Source: Patescibacteria group bacterium (GTDB taxonomy: Bacteria; Patescibacteriota; Microgenomatia; UBA1400; MFAQ01). From it: a DNA stretch of 64,000 nt. The notes under the pieces were generated by a model, which saw only the letters and a program-made list of their open reading frames with translations, did not search any database and was not told the origin of the DNA. The stretch covers positions 1,067 through 65,066 of the forward strand of contig JAHJQJ010000083.1 of NCBI GenBank assembly GCA_018819325.1, given 5' to 3'. Below are positions 14,344 through 30,537 of this stretch, piece after piece (the stretch's first letter is position 1; each line of letters opens with the position of its first letter). Both the position numbers and the translations under genes were made by a program.

Positions 14344-14439
14344 CGCCTAACGTTTCGGACTATACGAAGTCCTGATTCTGATTTTATCAGGATTTGGGTT
14401 AAATTTCTTCAAAATTTACCGTATAGTCCGTGTTAGGCG
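14344..14439. repeat. attC-like imperfect palindrome A (CGCCTAAC-GTTT-CGGACTATACG ... CGTATAGTCCG-T-GTTAGGCG)
   Basis: Ends match the integron inverse-core GCCTAAC and core GTTAGGC exactly; 11-bp inner stem; lies 9 nt after the stop of the upstream ORF. Confidence 0.5.
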
Positions 14440-14447
14440 ATGGAAAT

Positions 14448-14755: not shown

Positions 14756-14857
14756 CACATAACGTTTGGGATATACGAAGTTTTTCTGTAGCGTAGTGAA
14801 AGAAAAATTTGGGTGAGGGGCGAGCCGAGCCCCGAACCGTATATCCCTTGTTATACG
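14756..14857. repeat. attC-like imperfect palindrome B (CACATAACGTTT-GGGATATACG ... CGTATATCCC-TT-GTTATACG)
   Basis: Same architecture as A, but the inner stem has a different sequence and still pairs. Confidence 0.45.
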
Positions 14858-14894
14858 CCCAGAACGAAAAGCGATATGATTTCTTATCGCTTAA

Positions 14895-14932
14895 GTGAAA
14901 GTACAACGGGGCGCGACCAAAGGGAGCGAGTT
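14895..14932. repeat. Conserved 38-nt tail motif GTGAAAGTACAACGGGGCGCGACCAAAGGGAGCGAGTT (a second copy is at 17431-17468)
   Basis: Two near-identical copies, each adjacent to an attC-like element. Confidence 0.5.
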
Positions 14933-14992
14933 CAAAAAATATTTTTCAACCTTCACTCTCTTAAGTCTCTCTGGGATAAATTTGTTTTCTCT

Positions 14993-15041
14993 TTTGGGCG
15001 AATGGCAGAGGGGAACCAAAGGGGTGAATGCCTGAGCCCAA
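14993..15041. repeat. Conserved structured motif TTTTGGGCGAAKGGCAGAGGGGAAYYAAAGGGGTGAATGCC (copy 1; copy 2 is at 16179-16231)
   Basis: Two copies, each about 30-110 nt downstream of a cassette ORF stop; nested stems GGGC/GCCC and GGCA/UGCC. Confidence 0.45.
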
Positions 15042-15084
15042 TTCATCTATCGCACTGTCTTTATTTTCAGCTTGGTTGTGTACC

Positions 15085-15882
15085 CTAATTATTACAAAAA
15101 TTGTTTTCAATTGGCTGTTTGATTTCTTTAACAAAGCCACCTGAGTTACCGTCATACCAAAGTTCGTAATAAGGTTGTGACGCCTTATCAGACGATGTAT
15201 CAGTCATTCTGACTTTTAATATAGCTTGATTAGTTTGAATTTCCCAGCCAAAACTTTTATCCCATGAGGTAGATGTGATTCCGTACACTTTTTTAGCAAG
15301 ACAGGGATAGTTTTGTATAGTATATACTCCGGCCTTCTCTTTTAAGAATTCATGATAAGCTATTTTGCTTAGGGTTTTGTAGGAATTTACCTTTATTGCA
15401 GTGGTTGGACCTTGGTAATTCATATCGTCATATTTAGATTTTGGTAAAGTAGTTTTTTCACCAATTACTTGAATGATTAAACCAGAATGACCATCCTCAA
15501 TATTGCCGAGCAAAGGAGTGTAGGATTTCATCTCAGAGTCCCAAAGTTTGTATCTTGGGCCACAACCTTCTGGGATCATGCAATTAGAAACAGTTGTAAA
15601 TATTCCGTAATAAACTTCTCCTGTAACATCGCGATTAACAGCTCCCGAAGATGGTAGTGGGGTTGGTTGTTGATTTTCTAGTGGTTGTTTTACTTGGTAG
15701 GATTTGTATCCTAATACTCCTGTTACACTGATAAGTAGAACAACAAGAGAGATTAATGTCCAAGGTTTTTTCTTAGGAGATGTGGGTTGCTGTGGTGGGG
15801 TTTGTGGTTCTATGGGAGTAGTAGTTGATTGAGGATCAGTAGTTATGGGGATTTGGTCTACTGTTGATTCGTTTGCTTGCAT
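15085..15882 (-). CDS. Membrane-anchored hypothetical protein (Pro/Thr-rich N-terminus, one TM) - cassette ORF
   Basis: 265 aa with no known domain. Confidence 0.45.
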   Translation of the reverse strand: MQANESTVDQIPITTDPQSTTTPIEPQTPPQQPTSPKKKPWTLISLVVLLISVTGVLGYKSYQVKQPLENQQPTPLPSSGAVNRDVTGEVYYGIFTTVSNCMIPEGCGPRYKLWDSEMKSYTPLLGNIEDGHSGLIIQVIGEKTTLPKSKYDDMNYQGPTTAIKVNSYKTLSKIAYHEFLKEKAGVYTIQNYPCLAKKVYGITSTSWDKSFGWEIQTNQAILKVRMTDTSSDKASQPYYELWYDGNSGGFVKEIKQPIENNFCNN

Positions 15883-15982
15883 GTTGTGATAATTGTAGCA
15901 CTTATTTGATTCCCTCTATAGATAACAAATTTGCTTCCCCCTGCTATCAACCTTCACTGGTTGAAAAATATTTTTTGAATTG

Positions 15983-16110
15983 CGTACAACGTTTCTGCGT
16001 ATGCGATGTTTGCCACTGCTATAATATCGCGAAGCGGTAGCAGTGGCAAATATGGGCGTAGGCTTGCGGAGGTACGGAGCAAGCTGTAGCCGCATACGCT
16101 GTGTTATATG
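15983..16110. repeat. attC-like imperfect palindrome D (CGTACAACGTTT-CTGCGTATGCG ... CGCATACGC-T-GTGTTATATG)
   Basis: Same architecture as A-C. Confidence 0.45.
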
Positions 16111-16178
16111 ATGTACATGTTTTCCTTTAGTTTCTTGAAAAGAAACTGCTCTTAAAAAGAATCTGCTTTTATTTTTCC

Positions 16179-16231
16179 GTTTTGGGCGAAGGGCAGAGGG
16201 GAATTAAAGGGGTGAATGCCCGTAGTCCAAA
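16179..16231. repeat. Second copy of the GGGCGAAGGGCAGAGGGGAATTAAAGGGGTGAATGCC motif
   Basis: Direct comparison with 14993-15041. Confidence 0.45.
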
Positions 16232-16344
16232 ACTCCCTGTTCTGCCTTTCTATTTACAGTAAAGCTTCATTAGCCGATGAACAATGAGAGTCTTTTCATA
16301 TTGATTTAAAAAAATCAGCAGATGATTTATTCGCGTATATGACA

Positions 16345-17091
16345 TTAAACGATTTCACAATAACATGGATTAAAAATTTTAATATTTTCCTGCGGATAAC
16401 CTCTTGAATTACACACAATTTTTGTATCCCCAATTTTATAACTTAGCTTCGTATGAACATGTCCATGAATCCATAATTGGATATTGTGAGATAGAATAAA
16501 TTCTTCAAGATTGCTAGCAAATGATGCAGAAAGTACGTCGTTTTTATATTCACAACCAATGGATTGCATACTTGGAGCGTGATGGGTAATCACAACATTC
16601 TTTTCGTGTTTCCTTTTTAGCAATTCACGGGATAACCAATTTTTGGATTTATAGTAAGCGTCTGCCGCAGACAATGGTGAGAATTTTTTGGAAGCTGAAT
16701 TCATTCGAATAATTCTAAAATCATTTATCTGTTGGGTTGCTATAACACTTGCGACATGAAAATCTCCATAAAGTTTAAAATCTGTCCAAAGCGTACAGCC
16801 TAAAAAATTAACCCCATTATATGTAAATACGTCATTTTCAAGAATATGAATATTTGTATTTTTAGCTTGATTCCGAATTTCTTCTAAAATATCTGGATAC
16901 GTATGATGGTAATATTCGTGATTTCCAATGATATACAAGACAGGGACACCAACATCCTGTCTTGTAATCCAATCAATGCCCTTTGCGCCTACATGAATAT
17001 CACCGGCTAATATCAATATATCCGCATCAGTTTTAGGGATTTTGAATTCTTCAAATTCGTTGTGAATATCACTGAGAATGTGGATTTTCAT
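16345..17091 (-). CDS. Metallophosphoesterase (calcineurin-like) - cassette ORF
   Basis: GDIH...GNHEY...ITHHAP...GHVH metal-ligand motifs. Confidence 0.75.
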   Translation of the reverse strand: MKIHILSDIHNEFEEFKIPKTDADILILAGDIHVGAKGIDWITRQDVGVPVLYIIGNHEYYHHTYPDILEEIRNQAKNTNIHILENDVFTYNGVNFLGCTLWTDFKLYGDFHVASVIATQQINDFRIIRMNSASKKFSPLSAADAYYKSKNWLSRELLKRKHEKNVVITHHAPSMQSIGCEYKNDVLSASFASNLEEFILSHNIQLWIHGHVHTKLSYKIGDTKIVCNSRGYPQENIKIFNPCYCEIV

Positions 17092-17278
17092 TTTATGGTG
17101 GTTAAATACTGGCAGTCAAGCCACTTAACACGAGGGCGACATAACAAATATTAAAATTAAAGCGTTTTCGCAACGGAGCGGAGAAAACTCCATATTTCCC
17201 CTCTATATAAAAGAAAAACAAAATCAGATTCTTTTTAAGAGCTGGGGCGATAGCCCCACAAAAGGAAAACATGTATTT

Positions 17279-17393
17279 CACATAACGTTTCTGTATATCT
17301 GATGTCGAAACGCTCTATGCTTGATTTTAGCAGAGCGTGAACGATATGGGTCGAGGAGGTGCAACCGACGAGCCAGATATACAGTGTTATGTG
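17279..17393. repeat. attC-like imperfect palindrome C (CACATAAC-GTTT-CTGTATATCTG ... CAGATATACAG-T-GTTATGTG)
   Basis: 8-bp outer stem and 11-bp inner stem, both perfect; followed by the tail motif at 17431-17468. Confidence 0.5.
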
Positions 17394-17485
17394 TCCCGAA
17401 CAAGGTTGCTAGAATTTTTAAGCAACCGAAGTGAGAGTGCAACGTGGTGCGACCAAAGGGAGCAAGTTGAGTGATATTCTTGAGA

Positions 17486-18340: not shown

Positions 18341-18431
18341 CACATAACGTATCCAGCATAAAAGAAGTTTTTGCGAAGCAAAAATTTGGGTGAGTGCCGT
18401 AAGGCACGAACCTTTTATGCTGTGTTATACG
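18341..18431. repeat. attC-like imperfect palindrome E (CACATAACGT-ATC-CAGCATAAAAG ... CTTTTATGCTG-T-GTTATACG)
   Basis: Lies 3 nt from the start of ORF 17486..18337; its loop shares AAAAATTTGGGTGAG-hairpin-GAACC with element B, with a compensating hairpin change. Confidence 0.5.
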
Positions 18432-18462
18432 CTGTTGGTCGCTAAATAAATTGATCATTGTT

Positions 18463-20034: not shown

Positions 20035-20848
20035 ATGATGAGGGTTCTTGAGAAAACAGACAGGTTGTTGCGATTGAGGGGTTATAGTGCTAAAACGCGA
20101 AAAAGTTATTTGTTATATATTAAAAATTATTTATTATTTGCAAAACTACGGAAGCTACAGGAAAGAGATCGAGCCATTGAGCAATATTTGTTGGATAAAC
20201 AACGTAGAGGACTTGCTCCCCAAACCATAAATCTAGCATTAAATGCTGTTAAATTTATGTACAGAAAGGTATTGGATGACAAAAAACCTATTAAGTTTAA
20301 ATGTACCAAGAGAAACAAAAGATTGCCTGTAGTACTTTCTCGTAATGAAATTCAAAAAATAATTGCAGTGATTCAGAATCCAAAGCACAAACTAATGCTT
20401 TCTTTGGCTTACGCGACTGGACTGCGGGTTAGTGAGGTTGTTAACTTGAGGACTGGAGATCTTGCCTGCGACGAGTTGACAGTACATATTAAAAATGCAA
20501 AAGGGAAAAAAGACCGTATAAGTATTTTCCCTGAAAAACTGATTTCTGATATTACAAATTTGATTAAAGAGAAATCTGTGGATAGTTTTGTTTTTGAAAG
20601 TGCTCGGGGAGGTAAGTTAACCACCACTTCTTTGCAAAAGGTTTTTAGAAATGCTTTGGAAAAATCTAAGATACAGAAACCAGCCACGTTTCATAGTTTG
20701 AGGCACAGTTTTGCTACCCACTTGTCTGGAAAATGGAGTTGATGTAAGATACGTGCAGGAGTTGTTGGGACATGCGAATATTAGAACTACGCAAATATAT
20801 ACTAAAGTGACAAATCCTAAATTAAAAAATATTAAGAGTCCGTTGTAA
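20035..20848 (+). pseudogene. Tyrosine site-specific recombinase (XerC/XerD/IntI superfamily) with a +1 frameshift near 20725
   Basis: ORF 20035..20742 ends ...[16 protein letters not shown]. Shifting one base restores the canonical C-terminus [28 protein letters not shown] with catalytic Tyr, ending at TAA 20846-20848. The ~35-aa IntI-specific extra domain before HxLRH is absent. Confidence 0.6.
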
Positions 20849-26518: not shown

Positions 26519-26650
26519 AGTCTTTTTAGTTGCCCGGCGATGATCTATTTTCGCATTCAGTCGCCCGAATACTATCGTCAACGCTGACCTGTTTCACTTC
26601 TGAGTTCGAAATGGGATCAGGTGGGGCCAGATCGCTTTGATCACCGGACA
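26519..26650 (-). rRNA. rrf: 5S rRNA
   Basis: The reverse complement contains CCCACCTGATCCCATTTCGAACTCAGAAGTGAAAC, the universal 5S loop B/C region, and helix I forms between its ends. Confidence 0.75.
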
Positions 26651-27005
26651 GATAAGGAAACCTTGATTTACTTATCTGCACAGTGATAAAGATTTATTTT
26701 AAGGTTCACTTACCCTCTAAAAAGTGAATAGATTAGTATAAGTAGATCACTAATAATTTATCTACTTTTCGACCATTAGTAAGGGTCGGCTAAATACATT
26801 GCTGCACTTACACCTCCCTCCTATCAACGTAGTAATCTCCTACGGGTCTTTCAGTCGCCCGAAGGCGACTATGGATTTCTCATCTTGGGAACGGCTTCCC
26901 GCTTAGATGCATTCAGCGGTTATCACGTACCAATGTAGCTACCCAGCAGTGCTCTTGACAGAAACAACTGGTTCACTAGGGATTGGCTCATCTCGGTCCT
27001 CTCGT

Positions 27006-27309
27006 CATGTACTCCTCTGTTACCAGAGGCATAGACTATACCTTCATCCTCCTAAAAATCTTAGGATAGGATGTTTGCCGTATTATAAGTGTGTATATTT
27101 ATCCATCAAAGATGGAGGAACACTTATCTTCACCTTGAACATTACTTCAAGGATTCAGTCGTTACAGGGATTATCTTATTTTAAAACATGATAATCTTCC
27201 CTCGGTATTGTCCTCTAAAGCCCTGGGACCATGGCTATAATTATAGAGGATTTCACCGATTTGGACAAATTTTTCTTTCTCCACATTACTGTGGAATGTA
27301 GCATTTTTT
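27006..27309 (-). ncRNA. Putative ORF-less group I intron (~304 nt) splitting the sarcin-ricin loop (E. coli ~2655)
   Basis: Removing it restores CTCTAGT|ACGAGAGGACC. The 5' exon ends in U and the intron ends in G; a P1 helix UAGU/GCUA is possible; it shares GGGAAGAU, GACUGA and AUAGUC segments with the second intron. Confidence 0.6.
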
Positions 27310-27344
27310 ACTAGAGACAAACTCCCTCAAAAATCCAACGCTGG

Positions 27345-27390
<46 letters not shown>

Positions 27391-27461
27391 ACGTAGCGCT
27401 TTAATGGGCGAACAGACCAACCCTTGGGAGCTTCTTCACCCCCAGGATGCGCTGAGCCGAC

Positions 27462-27727
27462 CAAATGGCTCCATCTATTACTAGTGGTTTGGACTATATC
27501 TTTCAAAATTAATTACCTTTTCTTATCCTTTTGGTAACTAAATTGAGTTGGCGTGTGTACAGTTCTCCAATGAAGAACTATCTCAATTCCGATTAAATCG
27601 GAATATCAGTCTCTACGGGGATCTCGATCATGGATCGGATCTTCCCACGGGGTTAACCTTTGGTTGTTCATTTCCAAGGCATTCTCCGTTATTAGCCAAC
27701 TTTATCCTCGACATTCGTTCTTGGTTT
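27462..27727 (-). ncRNA. Putative ORF-less group I intron (~266 nt) after the equivalent of E. coli U2504 in the peptidyl-transferase ring
   Basis: Removing it restores ACCTCGAT|GTCGGCTCA. The 5' exon ends in U and the intron ends in G; a P1 helix CCUCGAU/GUCGAGG with a U-G pair at the splice site is read directly from the sequence. Confidence 0.65.
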
Positions 27728-29755
27728 ATCGAGGTAGCGAACTGCGCCGTCGCTATGGACGCTCAGGCGCAACTACTCTGTTATCCCTGGCGTAGCTTTT
27801 ATCCGTTAGGCCCGGAGCTTCCCACGAAGCTCACGAGGATCACTTAGACCTACTTTCGTATCTGCTTGACTTGTTTGTCTCACAGTTAAGCACCCATATA
27901 CCTATATGCTTACACTCCGATTTCCATCCGGAGCTCAGGGTACCTTTGTACGCTTGCGTTACTCTTTAGCAAGCAACCTCCCCAGTTAAACTACCTTCCA
28001 GACAGTGTCCCCGGTGTTGTTTGCAAACACCTTAGGTAAGAAATACATAAAGAAAAGAGAGGTATTCCACTGACGGGCTGAATATAAATATTCAGCCCTC
28101 CCTCCTATTCTCGACAGTTACAATACATATTTCAGTGCCAAGTAGTAGTAAAGCTGCACAGGGTCTTTTTGTCCTGCTGCCAGTAGGCCGCATCTTCACA
28201 GCCATTTCAAATTCGCCGAGCTCTTTCTCAAGACAGTTGAAGGGTGGTTAAACCATTCGTGCACGTCACCAATTAAGTGACAAGGAATTTCGCTACCTTT
28301 GGACTCTTATAGTTAAAGCCGCCCTTCACCGGGGCTTCAATCACAGGCTCAATATCCGAAGACATATCACCCGCTCATTTAACCTTCCGGCAGTGGGCAG
28401 GTCGCAGCCCGTATACTTAAGCTTTCGCTTTGGCACAGACCTGTGTTTTTGATAAACAGTCCCCCCTCAATCATTTGCTGTGGCCCGAATCGTGCAAGCA
28501 CGTTCCGGGCAGGGCATCTCGCATAGCTTACGCCCAGTTAATTTGCCTAGTTCCTTAAGAAAGATTCGCTCGTCCACCTTAGTCTACTCGACCTACCCAC
28601 CTGTGTCGGTTTTCGGTACGGATTGTATAGTTTCTATTTGCGACACTTTTCTCGGAAACTGAAGTCATCCAACTCTCTATTGATTACTCTCAAGATTGTA
28701 TTTACAGTTCGTGTTAACGCTCTAGCGGATTTGCCTACTAGAACTGCCTTACTGCTTAAACAGTGCATGTTCAACGCACTGCTCGGATTATCCAACTTCG
28801 TCATGCCCCAACTTAAAACGAAACTACACAAGGACCGGAATATTAACCGGTAATCCATCGGCTACGCCTTTTGGCCTCACCTTAGGGTCGCCTAACCCAA
28901 TGCTGACAAACATGGCGTTGGAAACCTTGGGTATTCGGTGGGGAAGATTCTCACTTCCCTCTCGCTACTCATGCCGACATTCTCACTTCTTGCCGCTCCA
29001 ACAAGCCTTACAGCTTGCCTTCAATGCTACAAGAACGCTCCCCTACCACTTTATATAAATATAAAATTCTTAAGTTCGGTAGTATATTTTAGCCTCGTTA
29101 TATCTTCGGTCACATATCTCTCGGCTAGTGAGCTGTTACGCTTTCTTTCAAGGATGGCTGCTTCTAAGCCGACCTCCTAGGTGTTTGAGAGATGATGTAT
29201 CCTTTTCCACTTAATATACATTTAGAGACCTTACTTGAAGATCTGGGATGTTTCCCTTTCGCCTCTGGAGCTTAGCCCCCAGACACTGAGTCCCTTGCAA
29301 TAAAACGGGGTATTCTTAGTTTGATTGGAAGTAAAGGTTTTACCCCTCAAATCCATTCAGTGCTTTACCCCCCCGTTTCTTAACAAAAGCCTACGCCTAG
29401 ACGTATTTCGGGGAGAACCAGCTATTTCCGAGTTCGTTTGGCATATTACCTCTAACCACAAGTCATCCGAGCCATTTGCGACTGACATCGGTGCGGGCCT
29501 CCACTAAAACTTAATTTAGCTTCACCCTGCTCATGGTTAGCTCACTCGGTTTCGGGTTTATACCACACAACTTAGCGCCCTGTTAGGACTTGGTTTCCCT
29601 TCGACTCCACTGCGGAGCAGCTTAATCTTGCTGTATGGAATAACTCGTCGGCTCATTCTTCAATAGGCACGCCATCATCCTCGATAAAATCGGGACTCTG
29701 GCTGCTTGTTAGCAATCAGTTTCAGGTACTTTTAAACGGGCTACCAACCCTGCTA

Positions 29756-29794
<39 letters not shown>

Positions 29795-30384
29795 ATAAGA
29801 GTAATTAGTCTTGGACCGTGGTCGGCCCGGATTCAATCTGGAGTTTGCCGTCTCCAGACCTACTTAGGAGTCTGACTATTGTTTTGTTGACAGTTTTGCG
29901 TACAAGACTTTCACTTTCTATGGTCGTCTATTCCAAAACGTTCTGCTACCTTATAAAACAAATATTGTTAGTCCTACAACCCCTGATATAAATACCAGGT
30001 TTAGACTCATCCCTTTTCGCTCGTCGCTTACTAAGGGACTCTCGTTCGATTTCTTTTCCTCTGGGTACTAAGATATTTCAGTTCCCCAGGTTCCCACTCC
30101 GACATAAAGTCGAAAGTACTCCGGTATAAACCGGAGTGGGTTACCCCATTCGGACACCGTCGGATCATAGGTTCTTGCCACCTACCCGACGACTTTCGCA
30201 GGCTTGAAACGTCCTTCATCGGCTCTTATTGCCAAGGCATCCACTGATTGCGTTATGAGTACATAAATTATTATTTGATGCGATCTACTTTTCTAATCTA
30301 TTCACTTTTTAATGAGCAAGTGCTCTGATTTATATAGAGCTAACGTTTTTACCTAAAATTAAGTAAGAAGGCTAGATCTACTGT

Positions 30385-30457
30385 GGAACGTAATATCGCT
30401 TTGCGATAAACGTTCCTAACCACGTTGAACGTAATATTGCCCTGCAATAAACGTTCT
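30385..30457 (-). promoter_or_regulatory. Two tandem covarying hairpins (GGAACGTAATATCGCTTTGCGATAAACGTTCC and TGAACGTAATATTGCCCTGCAATAAACGTTCT) in the tRNA-Ala/23S spacer
   Basis: Compensatory change ATCGC/GCGAT versus ATTGC/GCAAT; candidate rRNA processing stems. Confidence 0.4.
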
Positions 30458-30461
30458 TGCG

Positions 30462-30537
30462 TGGTGGACCGTGTCGGGCTCGAACCGACCACCTCATCGT
30501 TGCAAACGATGTGCTCTACCAGATGAGCTAACGGCCC
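30462..30537 (-). tRNA. tRNA-Ala (TGC)
   Basis: The reverse complement GGGCCGTTAGCTCATCTGGTAGAGCACATCGTTTGCAACGATGAGGTGGTCGGTTCGAGCCCGACACGGTCCACCA has a G3:U70 pair, a TGC anticodon and an encoded CCA. Confidence 0.85.

Follow-up and report, generated by a model that had tools for sequence, protein, structure and literature searches.

In a stretch of 64,000 nucleotides (nt) of DNA from a Patescibacteria group bacterium (contig JAHJQJ010000083.1; the whole stretch is referred to here as the window), a motif that occurs twice within an integron cassette array was found to be a real, previously undescribed, strand-specific hairpin that is located in the 3' trailers of a large family of integron cassettes and is also carried by phages of uncultured low-GC hosts. 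Judging from its sequence and surroundings, the hairpin probably represents a new cis-acting signal in mobile DNA. Its stem of 10 to 16 bp is free in sequence and kept in pairing, with strong covariation, and its loop of 18 to 23 nt contains, on the + strand of the window, the two invariant blocks [A/C]AGAGGGG and GGGGTGAAT[G/T], with 2 to 7 free bases between them. We found 332 copies in 237 public contigs or loci (designated below by L numbers), mostly metagenome-assembled genomes (MAGs) of Patescibacteria, also known as the candidate phyla radiation (CPR). Integron cassettes are usually described as an open reading frame (ORF) plus an attC, the latter being conserved only in structure. The hairpin is a second cis element, with a near-invariant loop and a fixed position and strand, and is common to hundreds of unrelated cassettes in CPR genomes, in MAGs labeled as various phyla, and in a few archaeal MAGs.

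The two copies in the window were located as follows.

14993 to 15042, + strand: trailer hairpin copy 1, with its 5' arm at approximately 14991 to 15006, loop AGAGGGGAACCAAAGGGGTGAAT at 15007 to 15029, and 3' arm at 15030 to 15044; its owner is the cassette of the ORF at 15085 to 15882 (minus strand), and it matches the covariance model at 60.8 bits.
16179 to 16233, + strand: trailer hairpin copy 2, with 5' arm GTTTTGGGCGAAGGGC at 16179 to 16194, loop AGAGGGGAATTAAAGGGGTGAAT at 16195 to 16217, and 3' arm GCCCGTAGTCCAAAAC at 16218 to 16233; its owner is a metallophosphoesterase cassette, and it matches the covariance model at 87.2 bits.

The original prediction for this DNA had described a conserved, structured, cassette-borne element present twice, and the repeat was confirmed: a degenerate 37-mer had exactly two matches in the window, at 14996 to 15032 and 16184 to 16220 on the + strand, with 0 expected from 100 shuffles, and the copies shared 43 of 48 positions (90% identity over 48 nt; repeat family D4), with little similarity beyond approximately 60 nt. 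Copy 1 is the more degenerate of the two, its 3' arm being short by one base and its pairing shorter, and the stem and loop of copy 2 have identical or near-identical counterparts at many other loci. The nested stems that had been proposed were the minimum free energy (MFE) folds for both copies and were backed by covariation among relatives. The single-sequence folding energy of the two window copies was no better than that of shuffles (z values of -0.15 and -0.86), so it is covariation alone that carries the structure. When the covariance model was run with its filters off over the whole 64 kb, only these two copies were recovered, and the next best match scored 11.9 bits. Both lie inside the cassette array, and the host's own genes in the 64 kb are without the hairpin; because the full model finds no further copy, the hairpin is not a general host signal. 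Since the cassette ORFs lie on the minus strand, the motif has its purine-rich strand antisense to them, and this strand is also the attC bottom strand. The original prediction had missed both the opposite strand of the ORFs and the larger inverted-repeat arrangement around the attC, of which the motif forms one arm.

Among 117 distinct hairpins, a 16-bp helix formed with 81% standard pairs and with compensatory changes in 15 of the 16 pairs. Double-change cells numbered 203, compared to 64.6 +/- 7.9 in shuffles and 55 to 122 in register-slid controls. Locus-specific complementary arms surround the constant center, as in the pairs GGGCGAAGGG/CCCGAAGCCC, GGGTGGTGGG/CCCGCCACCC, GGATTTTGGG/CCCAAAATCC, AATTTTTTAAG/CTAAAAAATT, and CGACAGGGGA/TCCCCTGGAG. 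The first search for relatives held the loop bases fixed; in a reversed design, one stem family was fixed and the loop was left free at 16 to 30 nt. All 118 metagenome matches obtained in this way carried the same two blocks, in three loop lengths (AGAGGGG-AATTAAA/ATTAA/TTA-GGGGTGAAT), and because the stem-fixed, loop-free search recovered the same blocks, the loop constraint is free of ascertainment bias. Covariance model R1 brought in more divergent copies, with spacers such as TCA, CA, CTG, and ATG. An internal loop (G.A, N.N, A.G) that had been considered as GNA/GNA sheared-pair proof of the purine strand was dropped, its 3' arm being quite variable. One trailer subfamily (L036, L040, L066, L074, L100, and L105) has the stem CTATGGCGAAAGGGGG/CCCCCTGTAGCCAT, beyond which, in gene sense, lie GTGATTGAC and a homopolymer tract of C10-12. 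A few hairpins (L026, L111, L102, L099, L031, and L041) combine the 5' arm of one stem family with the 3' arm of another and suggest, from their sequences, a recombination between two cassettes within the conserved loop; automated detection of such mixed-arm hairpins was noisy. At L054 (positions 409 to 487), the loop is inverted relative to its flanks, the only such case seen.

The runs of G in the loop also bring up a G-quadruplex device, which we consider highly improbable. Its two G4-G5 tracts would assemble bimolecularly on the bottom strand, or intramolecularly where the 5' arm is G rich, and would bridge DNA sites or block polymerases. In its favor, the spacer of 2 to 7 nt, free in sequence, conforms to the quadruplex loop rule, a full G3-N4-G3-N4-G4-N7-G4 is present in the most common stem family, and phages and some cassettes have tandem copies and additional G/C tracts close by. 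However, such a device would leave the invariant non-G positions (AGA and TGAAT) unexplained, many stems are without G tracts, and no precedent for it is known in integron recombination.

The element proved to travel with cassettes in many other genomes and is therefore not a local duplication. A scan for the 22 fixed loop bases, with one genome per species, returned at least 119 contigs. Among the 80 matches listed, 47 were Patescibacteria/CPR, 17 were of Gammaproteobacteria type, 4 were of Bacteroidota/Ignavibacteria type, 3 were archaeal, and 9 were unclassified MAGs, and the taxon labels of MAGs carrying the hairpin may be unreliable. Within loci, the copies were co-oriented without exception (332 to 0 over the 237 loci). 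An ORF on the opposite strand ended just past the motif in 101 of the 112 first-round loci, and in approximately 55% of 280 distinct cases its stop codon ended 0 to 12 nt before the stem, the most frequent arrangement being TAA-GGW-stem. A second mode of the ORF-to-hairpin distance, at 67 to 74 nt, was due to tandem hairpins. Such tandems, approximately 66 to 150 nt apart, were seen in L019, L021, L126, and others, as well as in L254 and L258.

Downstream in gene sense, the hairpin is followed by an A-rich linker, a small hairpin, and an attC, at a hairpin-to-attC distance of 60 to 220 nt. The first attC finder required complementary R boxes and was too strict (46 of 314), and a relaxed version with a random-position control was used instead. 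With it, a downstream attC was called in 191 of 279 assessable cases versus 23 of 450 random positions, and by eye most of the other cases had one too. Conversely, 163 of the 420 attCs called in these loci had the hairpin 40 to 330 nt upstream, and IntI homologues were present in 23 loci. For both window copies, the predicted placement between a cassette ORF stop and an attC was correct. The attCs of L001 to L237 and of the window are long (median of approximately 112 nt), with a pair of inner hairpins and, at the center, a conserved motif, C(A/G/T)CCCA(T/A)ATT, which is similar to the trailer loop read on its sense strand; 105 of 235 attC sites have a G.T at L-stem position 12.

Outside cassettes, scans of IMG/VR detected the same loop on good stems (9 to 12 of 12 arm pairs) in approximately 14 low-GC contigs (phage contigs with the hairpin: L240, L241, L243, L251 to L256, and L258 to L260). 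On the sense-like strand, the phage loop reads AATTCACCCC(C)-N-CCCC(C)TCTT. The hairpin lies in a non-coding region 200 to 800 nt upstream of terL: in L240, L251, and L254, whose neighboring ORFs were scanned, an ORF of approximately 410 to 440 amino acids (aa) is the large terminase (Pfam Terminase_6N), with portal genes following it in L251 and L254, and most of the other phage contigs have ORFs of similar size in the same position. Orientation relative to terL varies, the C-rich strand being sense in L251 and the G-rich strand in L254, L258, L241, and L260. After the phage hairpin come CCCCCCTA-type repeats, and the start regions downstream of it are AT rich and promoter-like; no G-rich box was found before the ORFs that follow. 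The non-coding regions upstream of terL measure 0.3 to 1.3 kb and have a conserved CCGAATAAC after the hairpin, and several phage hairpins are approximately 100 to 230 nt from a contig end. The region may be a cos, pac, or ori region. The copy in L257, a 71-kb contig classed as viral, is an ordinary cassette trailer. Matches to CAGAGGGG...G in high-GC viral contigs were without complementary arms and lay inside ORFs and were set aside as chance matches, and BLAST searches against GenBank phages and PLSDB plasmids returned only chance AT-rich matches.

Many cassettes share a further module, a leader that matches the trailer and is located at the 5' end of the same cassette. The window shows this arrangement in the metallophosphoesterase cassette.

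16103 to 16177, + strand: trailer linker, from the attC to copy 2; an inverted repeat of the same cassette's 5' end at 17213 to 17286.
17150 to 17286, minus strand: leader of the metallophosphoesterase cassette, comprising an R' box, linker', box TATAGAGGGGAAATATGGAG (+ strand, approximately 17186 to 17209), and small hairpin GTTTTCTCCGCTCCGTTGCGAAAAC (+ strand, 17164 to 17188).

The linker inverted repeats in the window are I1 (30 nt, 93%) and I2 (29 nt, 86%), and the leader gave a weak covariance-model match at 17152 to 17222 on the minus strand. Across loci, the conserved leader consists of an R' box, linker', TATAGAGGGGAA(A)TA(T/A)GGTG, and a small hairpin, GTTTTC-TCCGCTCCGCTAC-GAAAAC. The leader module was seen in more than 60 loci (e.g., L030, L086, L098, and L126), with a second box, AAGGGG, after the small hairpin, which itself resembles an inner hairpin of these attCs. 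The module could encode a short peptide (V/M-FSPLRYEN...) or be purely structural, and from its sequence the leader box looks like a Shine-Dalgarno (SD) sequence with a GTG or ATG start. Of 186 cases, 29 to 36 had an inverted copy of the linker upstream, on the side of the same cassette, and 1 had it beyond the attC; with shuffled queries, there were none. A general masking of the next cassette's leader by the trailer loop across the attC was rejected, as the inverted linker lay beyond the attC in this one case only. Because the leader, read in sense, can be aligned with the trailer, read in antisense, over the whole span of R box, linker, and box, the trailer loop is an inverted homologue of the leader box, and because loop and linker are together an inverted copy of the cassette's own leader, the attC lies inside a long cassette-specific inverted repeat. 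When folded, the canonical junction formed a hairpin of approximately 300 nt with the attC at its apex, in which the local hairpin and loop-leader pairing were alternatives.

This homology raises the question of whether the hairpin has a function of its own. The loop might be an inverted duplicate of the leader box that is carried along in the long palindrome around the attC by concerted evolution or foldback copying. The leader-trailer alignment fits such an origin, as does the finding that loop and box subtypes co-vary within cassettes, short GGGGT-type loops occurring with GGGGT-type leaders. We nonetheless think this improbable. The trailer has invariant features that the leader is without, namely, the second GGGG tract, TGAAT, and paired covarying arms; most cassettes with a trailer hairpin have no detectable leader; the hairpin is present in phages without an attC or leader; and its orientation is 332 to 0, although the arms could invert the loop.

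The strand on which the hairpin acts was assessed from the wobble pairs in its stem. On the strand with the purine-rich loop, G:T pairs outnumbered A:C pairs 84 to 53 in a MAFFT alignment and 83 to 34 in a covariance-model alignment of 99 distinct stems (naive P of 7e-6), and the mismatches were mostly purine-purine on the purine strand. Read from alignments in this way, the wobble asymmetry favors the attC bottom strand as the one that folds or is exposed single stranded. The L-stems of attC sites act as bottom-strand single-stranded DNA (ssDNA). A further indication came from the host's translation signals. In approximately 40 ORF upstream regions (e.g., those of ORFs 20898, 24352, 39775, and 54891), host genes almost never had an SD sequence, and many had a TAnAAT-like box approximately 7 to 12 nt before the ATG and looked leaderless; the exceptions in the window were ORF 51690 (AAAGGGGGTGA) and a GH5 cassette (TAGGGGGTAAA). 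The variable orientation in phages and the near-absence of host SD sequences argue against a purely mRNA-level role.

Non-coding, strand-specific hairpins are found on other mobile DNA, as ssoA and ssoU of rolling-circle plasmids and as ssi of plasmids and ssDNA phages. By analogy with these, we tentatively propose, as the likeliest of the readings considered here though at a confidence well short of even, that the cassette hairpin works on the recombinogenic strand in the form of ssDNA and is recognized specifically through its loop. Folded from bottom-strand ssDNA, it would present its fixed G-rich loop to a host factor and would be used whenever cassette or phage DNA is single stranded, for example, in priming complementary-strand synthesis or in handling ssDNA by the attC. 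We counted as support for this proposal the covariation, the loop constraint, the strand specificity, the array-only window copies, the wobble bias, the phage orientation, and the cassette-linked leader. The more specific proposal that it is a dedicated ssDNA-handling signal of CPR mobile DNA and phages, a bottom-strand loop site that would recruit a priming factor or host ssDNA factor to excised or incoming cassettes, we regard as rather unlikely.

Several observations weigh against an ssDNA role. The need of excised cassettes for complementary-strand priming is a supposition, and the partner protein is putative. The wobble counts are not phylogenetically independent, and the covariance-model alignment had been fitted with the purine strand as its orientation. 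As a positive control, the attC L-stem gave only 57 to 44 (P of 0.23), had low power, and was confounded by the conserved G.T at position 12. Transcription of the ORF certainly includes the sense strand of the hairpin, and the tight spacing to the stop codon is most naturally a feature of RNA or translation. For approximately 80% of trailers, no matching leader could be detected within 3 kb. Finally, no resemblance to the CS-6 (TAGCGT) or RSB sequences of ssoA-type origins was seen in loop and arms by eye, no dedicated comparison having been run.

The main rival is a role in sense-strand RNA, which we consider possible and still doubtful. In the transcript, the loop would read AUUCACCCC-N-CCCCUCU, free of G and with two C4 tracts, and would be anti-SD-like with respect to the leader box AGAGGGGAA..GGUG. 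The hairpin might then mask or hand over ribosome binding at leaders, either in cis or as a processed RNA with a C-rich loop, or ribosomes terminating a few nucleotides upstream might open it, giving translational coupling or gating between cassettes. Such a role would account for the proximity of the stop codon (0 to 12 nt before the stem in approximately 55%, with the mode TAA-GGW-stem). The loop is also exactly complementary to AGAGGGG and GGTG of the leader box, and in MFE folds it can pair with the leader instead of forming the local hairpin. Cassette ORFs and leaders have strong G-rich SD-like boxes that host genes mostly lack, and attC RNA structures and short ORFs that control cassette translation provide a precedent (PMC8876359). 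The wobble asymmetry, however, favors the other strand, and phages carry the hairpin in either orientation with no G-rich box before the downstream ORFs. Nor is there a partner ribosome binding site at a consistent position: of 186 cases, only 1 has a matching leader directly after the neighboring attC and 29 to 36 have one in the same cassette, and some 80% of trailers are without a detectable leader partner. The second block (CACCCC) pairs over only 4 bp with the leader.

We also compared the hairpin with known kinds of elements. The original prediction had matched it to no riboswitch or RNA family, and Rfam 15, with its riboswitches and ribozymes, likewise gave no match to it at the gathering score or at an E value of 10 or below in the window, or at an E value of 1 or below in locus L126, and the Rfam scans otherwise returned only rRNA, tRNA, a group I intron, and chance miRNA-like matches to palindromes. 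A full-text literature search for the loop sequence returned only unrelated eukaryotic primers, and a topic-based search found nothing describing the motif. The hairpin is not an attC; its arms, GTTTTGGG...CCCAAAAC, are in GTT...AAC order, its loop rather than its ends is invariant, and true attCs lie 60 to 220 nt away. One attC trait it does have is its location at the 3' cassette end, co-oriented through the array (332 of 332). REP/BIME elements (repetitive extragenic palindromes and bacterial interspersed mosaic elements) were rejected, only two copies being present in the 64-kb window, both in the cassette array. So were CRISPR repeats, the copies being separated by whole ORFs (1188 nt in the window and 700 to 3000 nt elsewhere) or arranged in tandem at approximately 66 to 150 nt. 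A coding sequence was rejected because loop lengths of 18, 19, 21, 22, and 23 nt and single-base arm indels break every frame and the element follows stop codons; in both window copies, all three frames were open when read by hand, including a 38-aa hydrophobic + strand ORF from the ATG at 15028. Judged by its sequence, the hairpin belongs to no described family, and its kind would be that of the cis-acting hairpin signals of mobile DNA.

The original prediction had also offered a terminator variant, which was not borne out. The loop of 18 to 23 nt, the flanks GGAAAAAG (sense) and WCCTTATT (antisense), and the absence of a U-tract (or T-run) on either strand do not suit an intrinsic terminator, and a terminator scan made no call. 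A 3' stabilizer or a small RNA, which had been offered as well, would be possible on the gene-sense strand; the wobble asymmetry and the variable orientation in phages point instead to the purine strand. A broader role at the mRNA 3' end is unlikely in our view. The hairpin would then stabilize or process the ends of monocistronic transcripts or serve as a factor-dependent terminator or insulator, for example, by Rho loading at the C-rich loop. Its location right after stop codons, the G-free, C-rich loop of the sense strand, the A-rich unstructured linker that follows, the occurrence of tandem copies, and the position of the phage copies in inter-operon gaps are all consistent with such a role. 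In addition to the missing U-tract and the negative scan, however, the host's own genes in the 64 kb never use the hairpin, a stabilizer or terminator would need no invariant 16-nt loop sequence, the orientation in L254, L258, L260, and L241 is unfit for terminating the neighboring operons, and the wobble bias again favors the other strand.

The integron cassette array that holds the window copies extends from 13.7 to 20.0 kb, to the left of a truncated integron-integrase gene. Its ORFs lie in series on the minus strand, and after each one, in gene sense, comes an imperfect palindrome that has AAC...GTT boxes. Its features are listed below.

Approximately 14345 to 14440: attC, an imperfect palindrome with AAC...GTT boxes.
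14757 to 14856, minus strand: attC of the copy 1 cassette, with boxes ACATAAC ... GTTATAC (+ strand), read from the sequence (repeat families D1 to D3 and D13).
15085 to 15882, minus strand: cassette ORF of 265 aa with no family match; its stop is approximately 42 nt before hairpin copy 1.
15984 to 16101, minus strand: attC of the copy 2 cassette, with boxes GTACAAC ... GTTATAT (+ strand).
16345 to 17091, minus strand: cassette ORF of 248 aa, a calcineurin-like metallophosphoesterase (PF00149, E value of 2e-14), upstream of copy 2 in gene sense.
Approximately 17280 to 17392: attC, an imperfect palindrome with AAC...GTT boxes.
Approximately 18341 to 18432: attC, an imperfect palindrome with AAC...GTT boxes.
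20035 to 20742, + strand: truncated integron-integrase gene, divergent from the array (Pfam Phage_integrase and SAM_4).

The attC of the copy 2 cassette is nearly identical to attCs that adjoin the same hairpin elsewhere (e.g., L011, L019, and L021). The window integrase is 235 aa long and covers TIGR02249 positions 2 to 179 of 315, below the cut-off. The same integrase gene is truncated in another way in L248 and L249, two related MAG assemblies (161 or 177 aa plus a 31-aa ORF), whose contigs stop at this point. A second repeat, AAGTGARAGTRCAACGKGGYGCGACCAAAGGGAGCRAGTT, at 14893 to 14932 and 17429 to 17468 (88% identical), resembles the 3' half of a degenerate attC; it has an R'-like GTTGTAC/GTTGCAC on the minus strand, and longer versions precede R'' at loci such as L022, L028, and L030. 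Elsewhere in the window, an rRNA cluster at 26532 to 30537 (minus strand) contains tRNA, 23S, and 5S genes with no adjacent 16S, and the 23S gene has a group I intron at 27013 to 27341 (61.1 bits), which is typical of some CPR genomes. The TrmD protein encoded in the window has identical counterparts in the assemblies GCA_018819865.1 and GCA_018821105.1.

If the hairpin is a dedicated ssDNA-handling signal, integron cassettes carry a second conserved cis-acting module besides the attC, and this module and its matching leader would make each cassette a self-contained unit with terminal inverted repeats of approximately 110 nt, which bears on how cassettes are built. Because many cassettes also share the matching leader, cassette ends are long inverted repeats around the attC, and the same hairpin adjoins the terminase genes of uncultured phages. 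Should it act as ssDNA, it would provide a handle on the poorly known life of excised cassettes, whether single or double stranded and primed or not, and could inform the long-standing question of cassette assembly. Should it act as RNA, it would be a new portable translation-control module for polycistronic arrays in hosts that barely use SD sequences. Either way, it can already serve as a marker with which to find this class of cassettes, not captured by current attC models alone.

By function, the hairpin compares best with the attC, with sso and ssi, and with the translation-control features of attI and attC (PMC8876359). Hairpin and attC are both cassette borne, at the 3' end, strand and orientation specific, and endowed with covarying arms, and they lie on the same strand 60 to 220 nt apart. 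The hairpin differs in being without R''/R' boxes in AAC...GTT order, L boxes, or extrahelical bases, in having an invariant loop where that of the attC is variable, and in occurring also in phages with no attC nearby. With sso and ssi, it shares a short conserved loop on a stem that is conserved in structure and variable in sequence, as well as its absence from the chromosomal genes of the host; ssoA, however, is far longer. The orientation specificity of the hairpin and its wobble asymmetry toward the attC bottom strand are compatible with sso and ssi, the attC control for the asymmetry having low power. Among RNA regulators, RsaE/RoxS-type RNAs pair C-rich loops with G-rich SD sequences. 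Like them, the hairpin has unpaired CCCC tracts in its loop that are complementary to G-rich ribosome binding sites, but it is embedded in trailers, without a terminator or an independent gene, and the strand evidence points to the opposite strand.

Within cassettes, attC RNA structures and short ORFs (ORF-11, ORF-17, and ORF-18) gate translation, and the cmlA leader is an attenuator (PMC8876359). These elements likewise act in cis between cassette cistrons, by SD sequestration, stop-proximal structures, and short leader ORFs, and the leaders described here resemble them in having an SD-like box, a GTG or ATG start, and a hairpin. They are, however, attI or attC embedded or cassette specific, and none is a separate hairpin with a conserved loop common to hundreds of unrelated cassettes. 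The DUF1874 and Transposase-resistance motifs are structured, recur in consecutive intergenic regions of cassette-like arrays, and have been interpreted as attC sites themselves (PMC5737381). The hairpin shares with them the ambiguity between action as ssDNA and action as RNA; unlike the hairpin, which is unmatched there, both are in Rfam, and the hairpin is additional to the attC. REP/BIME elements are also imperfect palindromes directly 3' of stop codons. REPs, however, are scattered in high copy number across the host chromosome, and their conserved parts are the stem and the foot, whereas the hairpin occurs only in cassettes and phages and it is the loop that is conserved.

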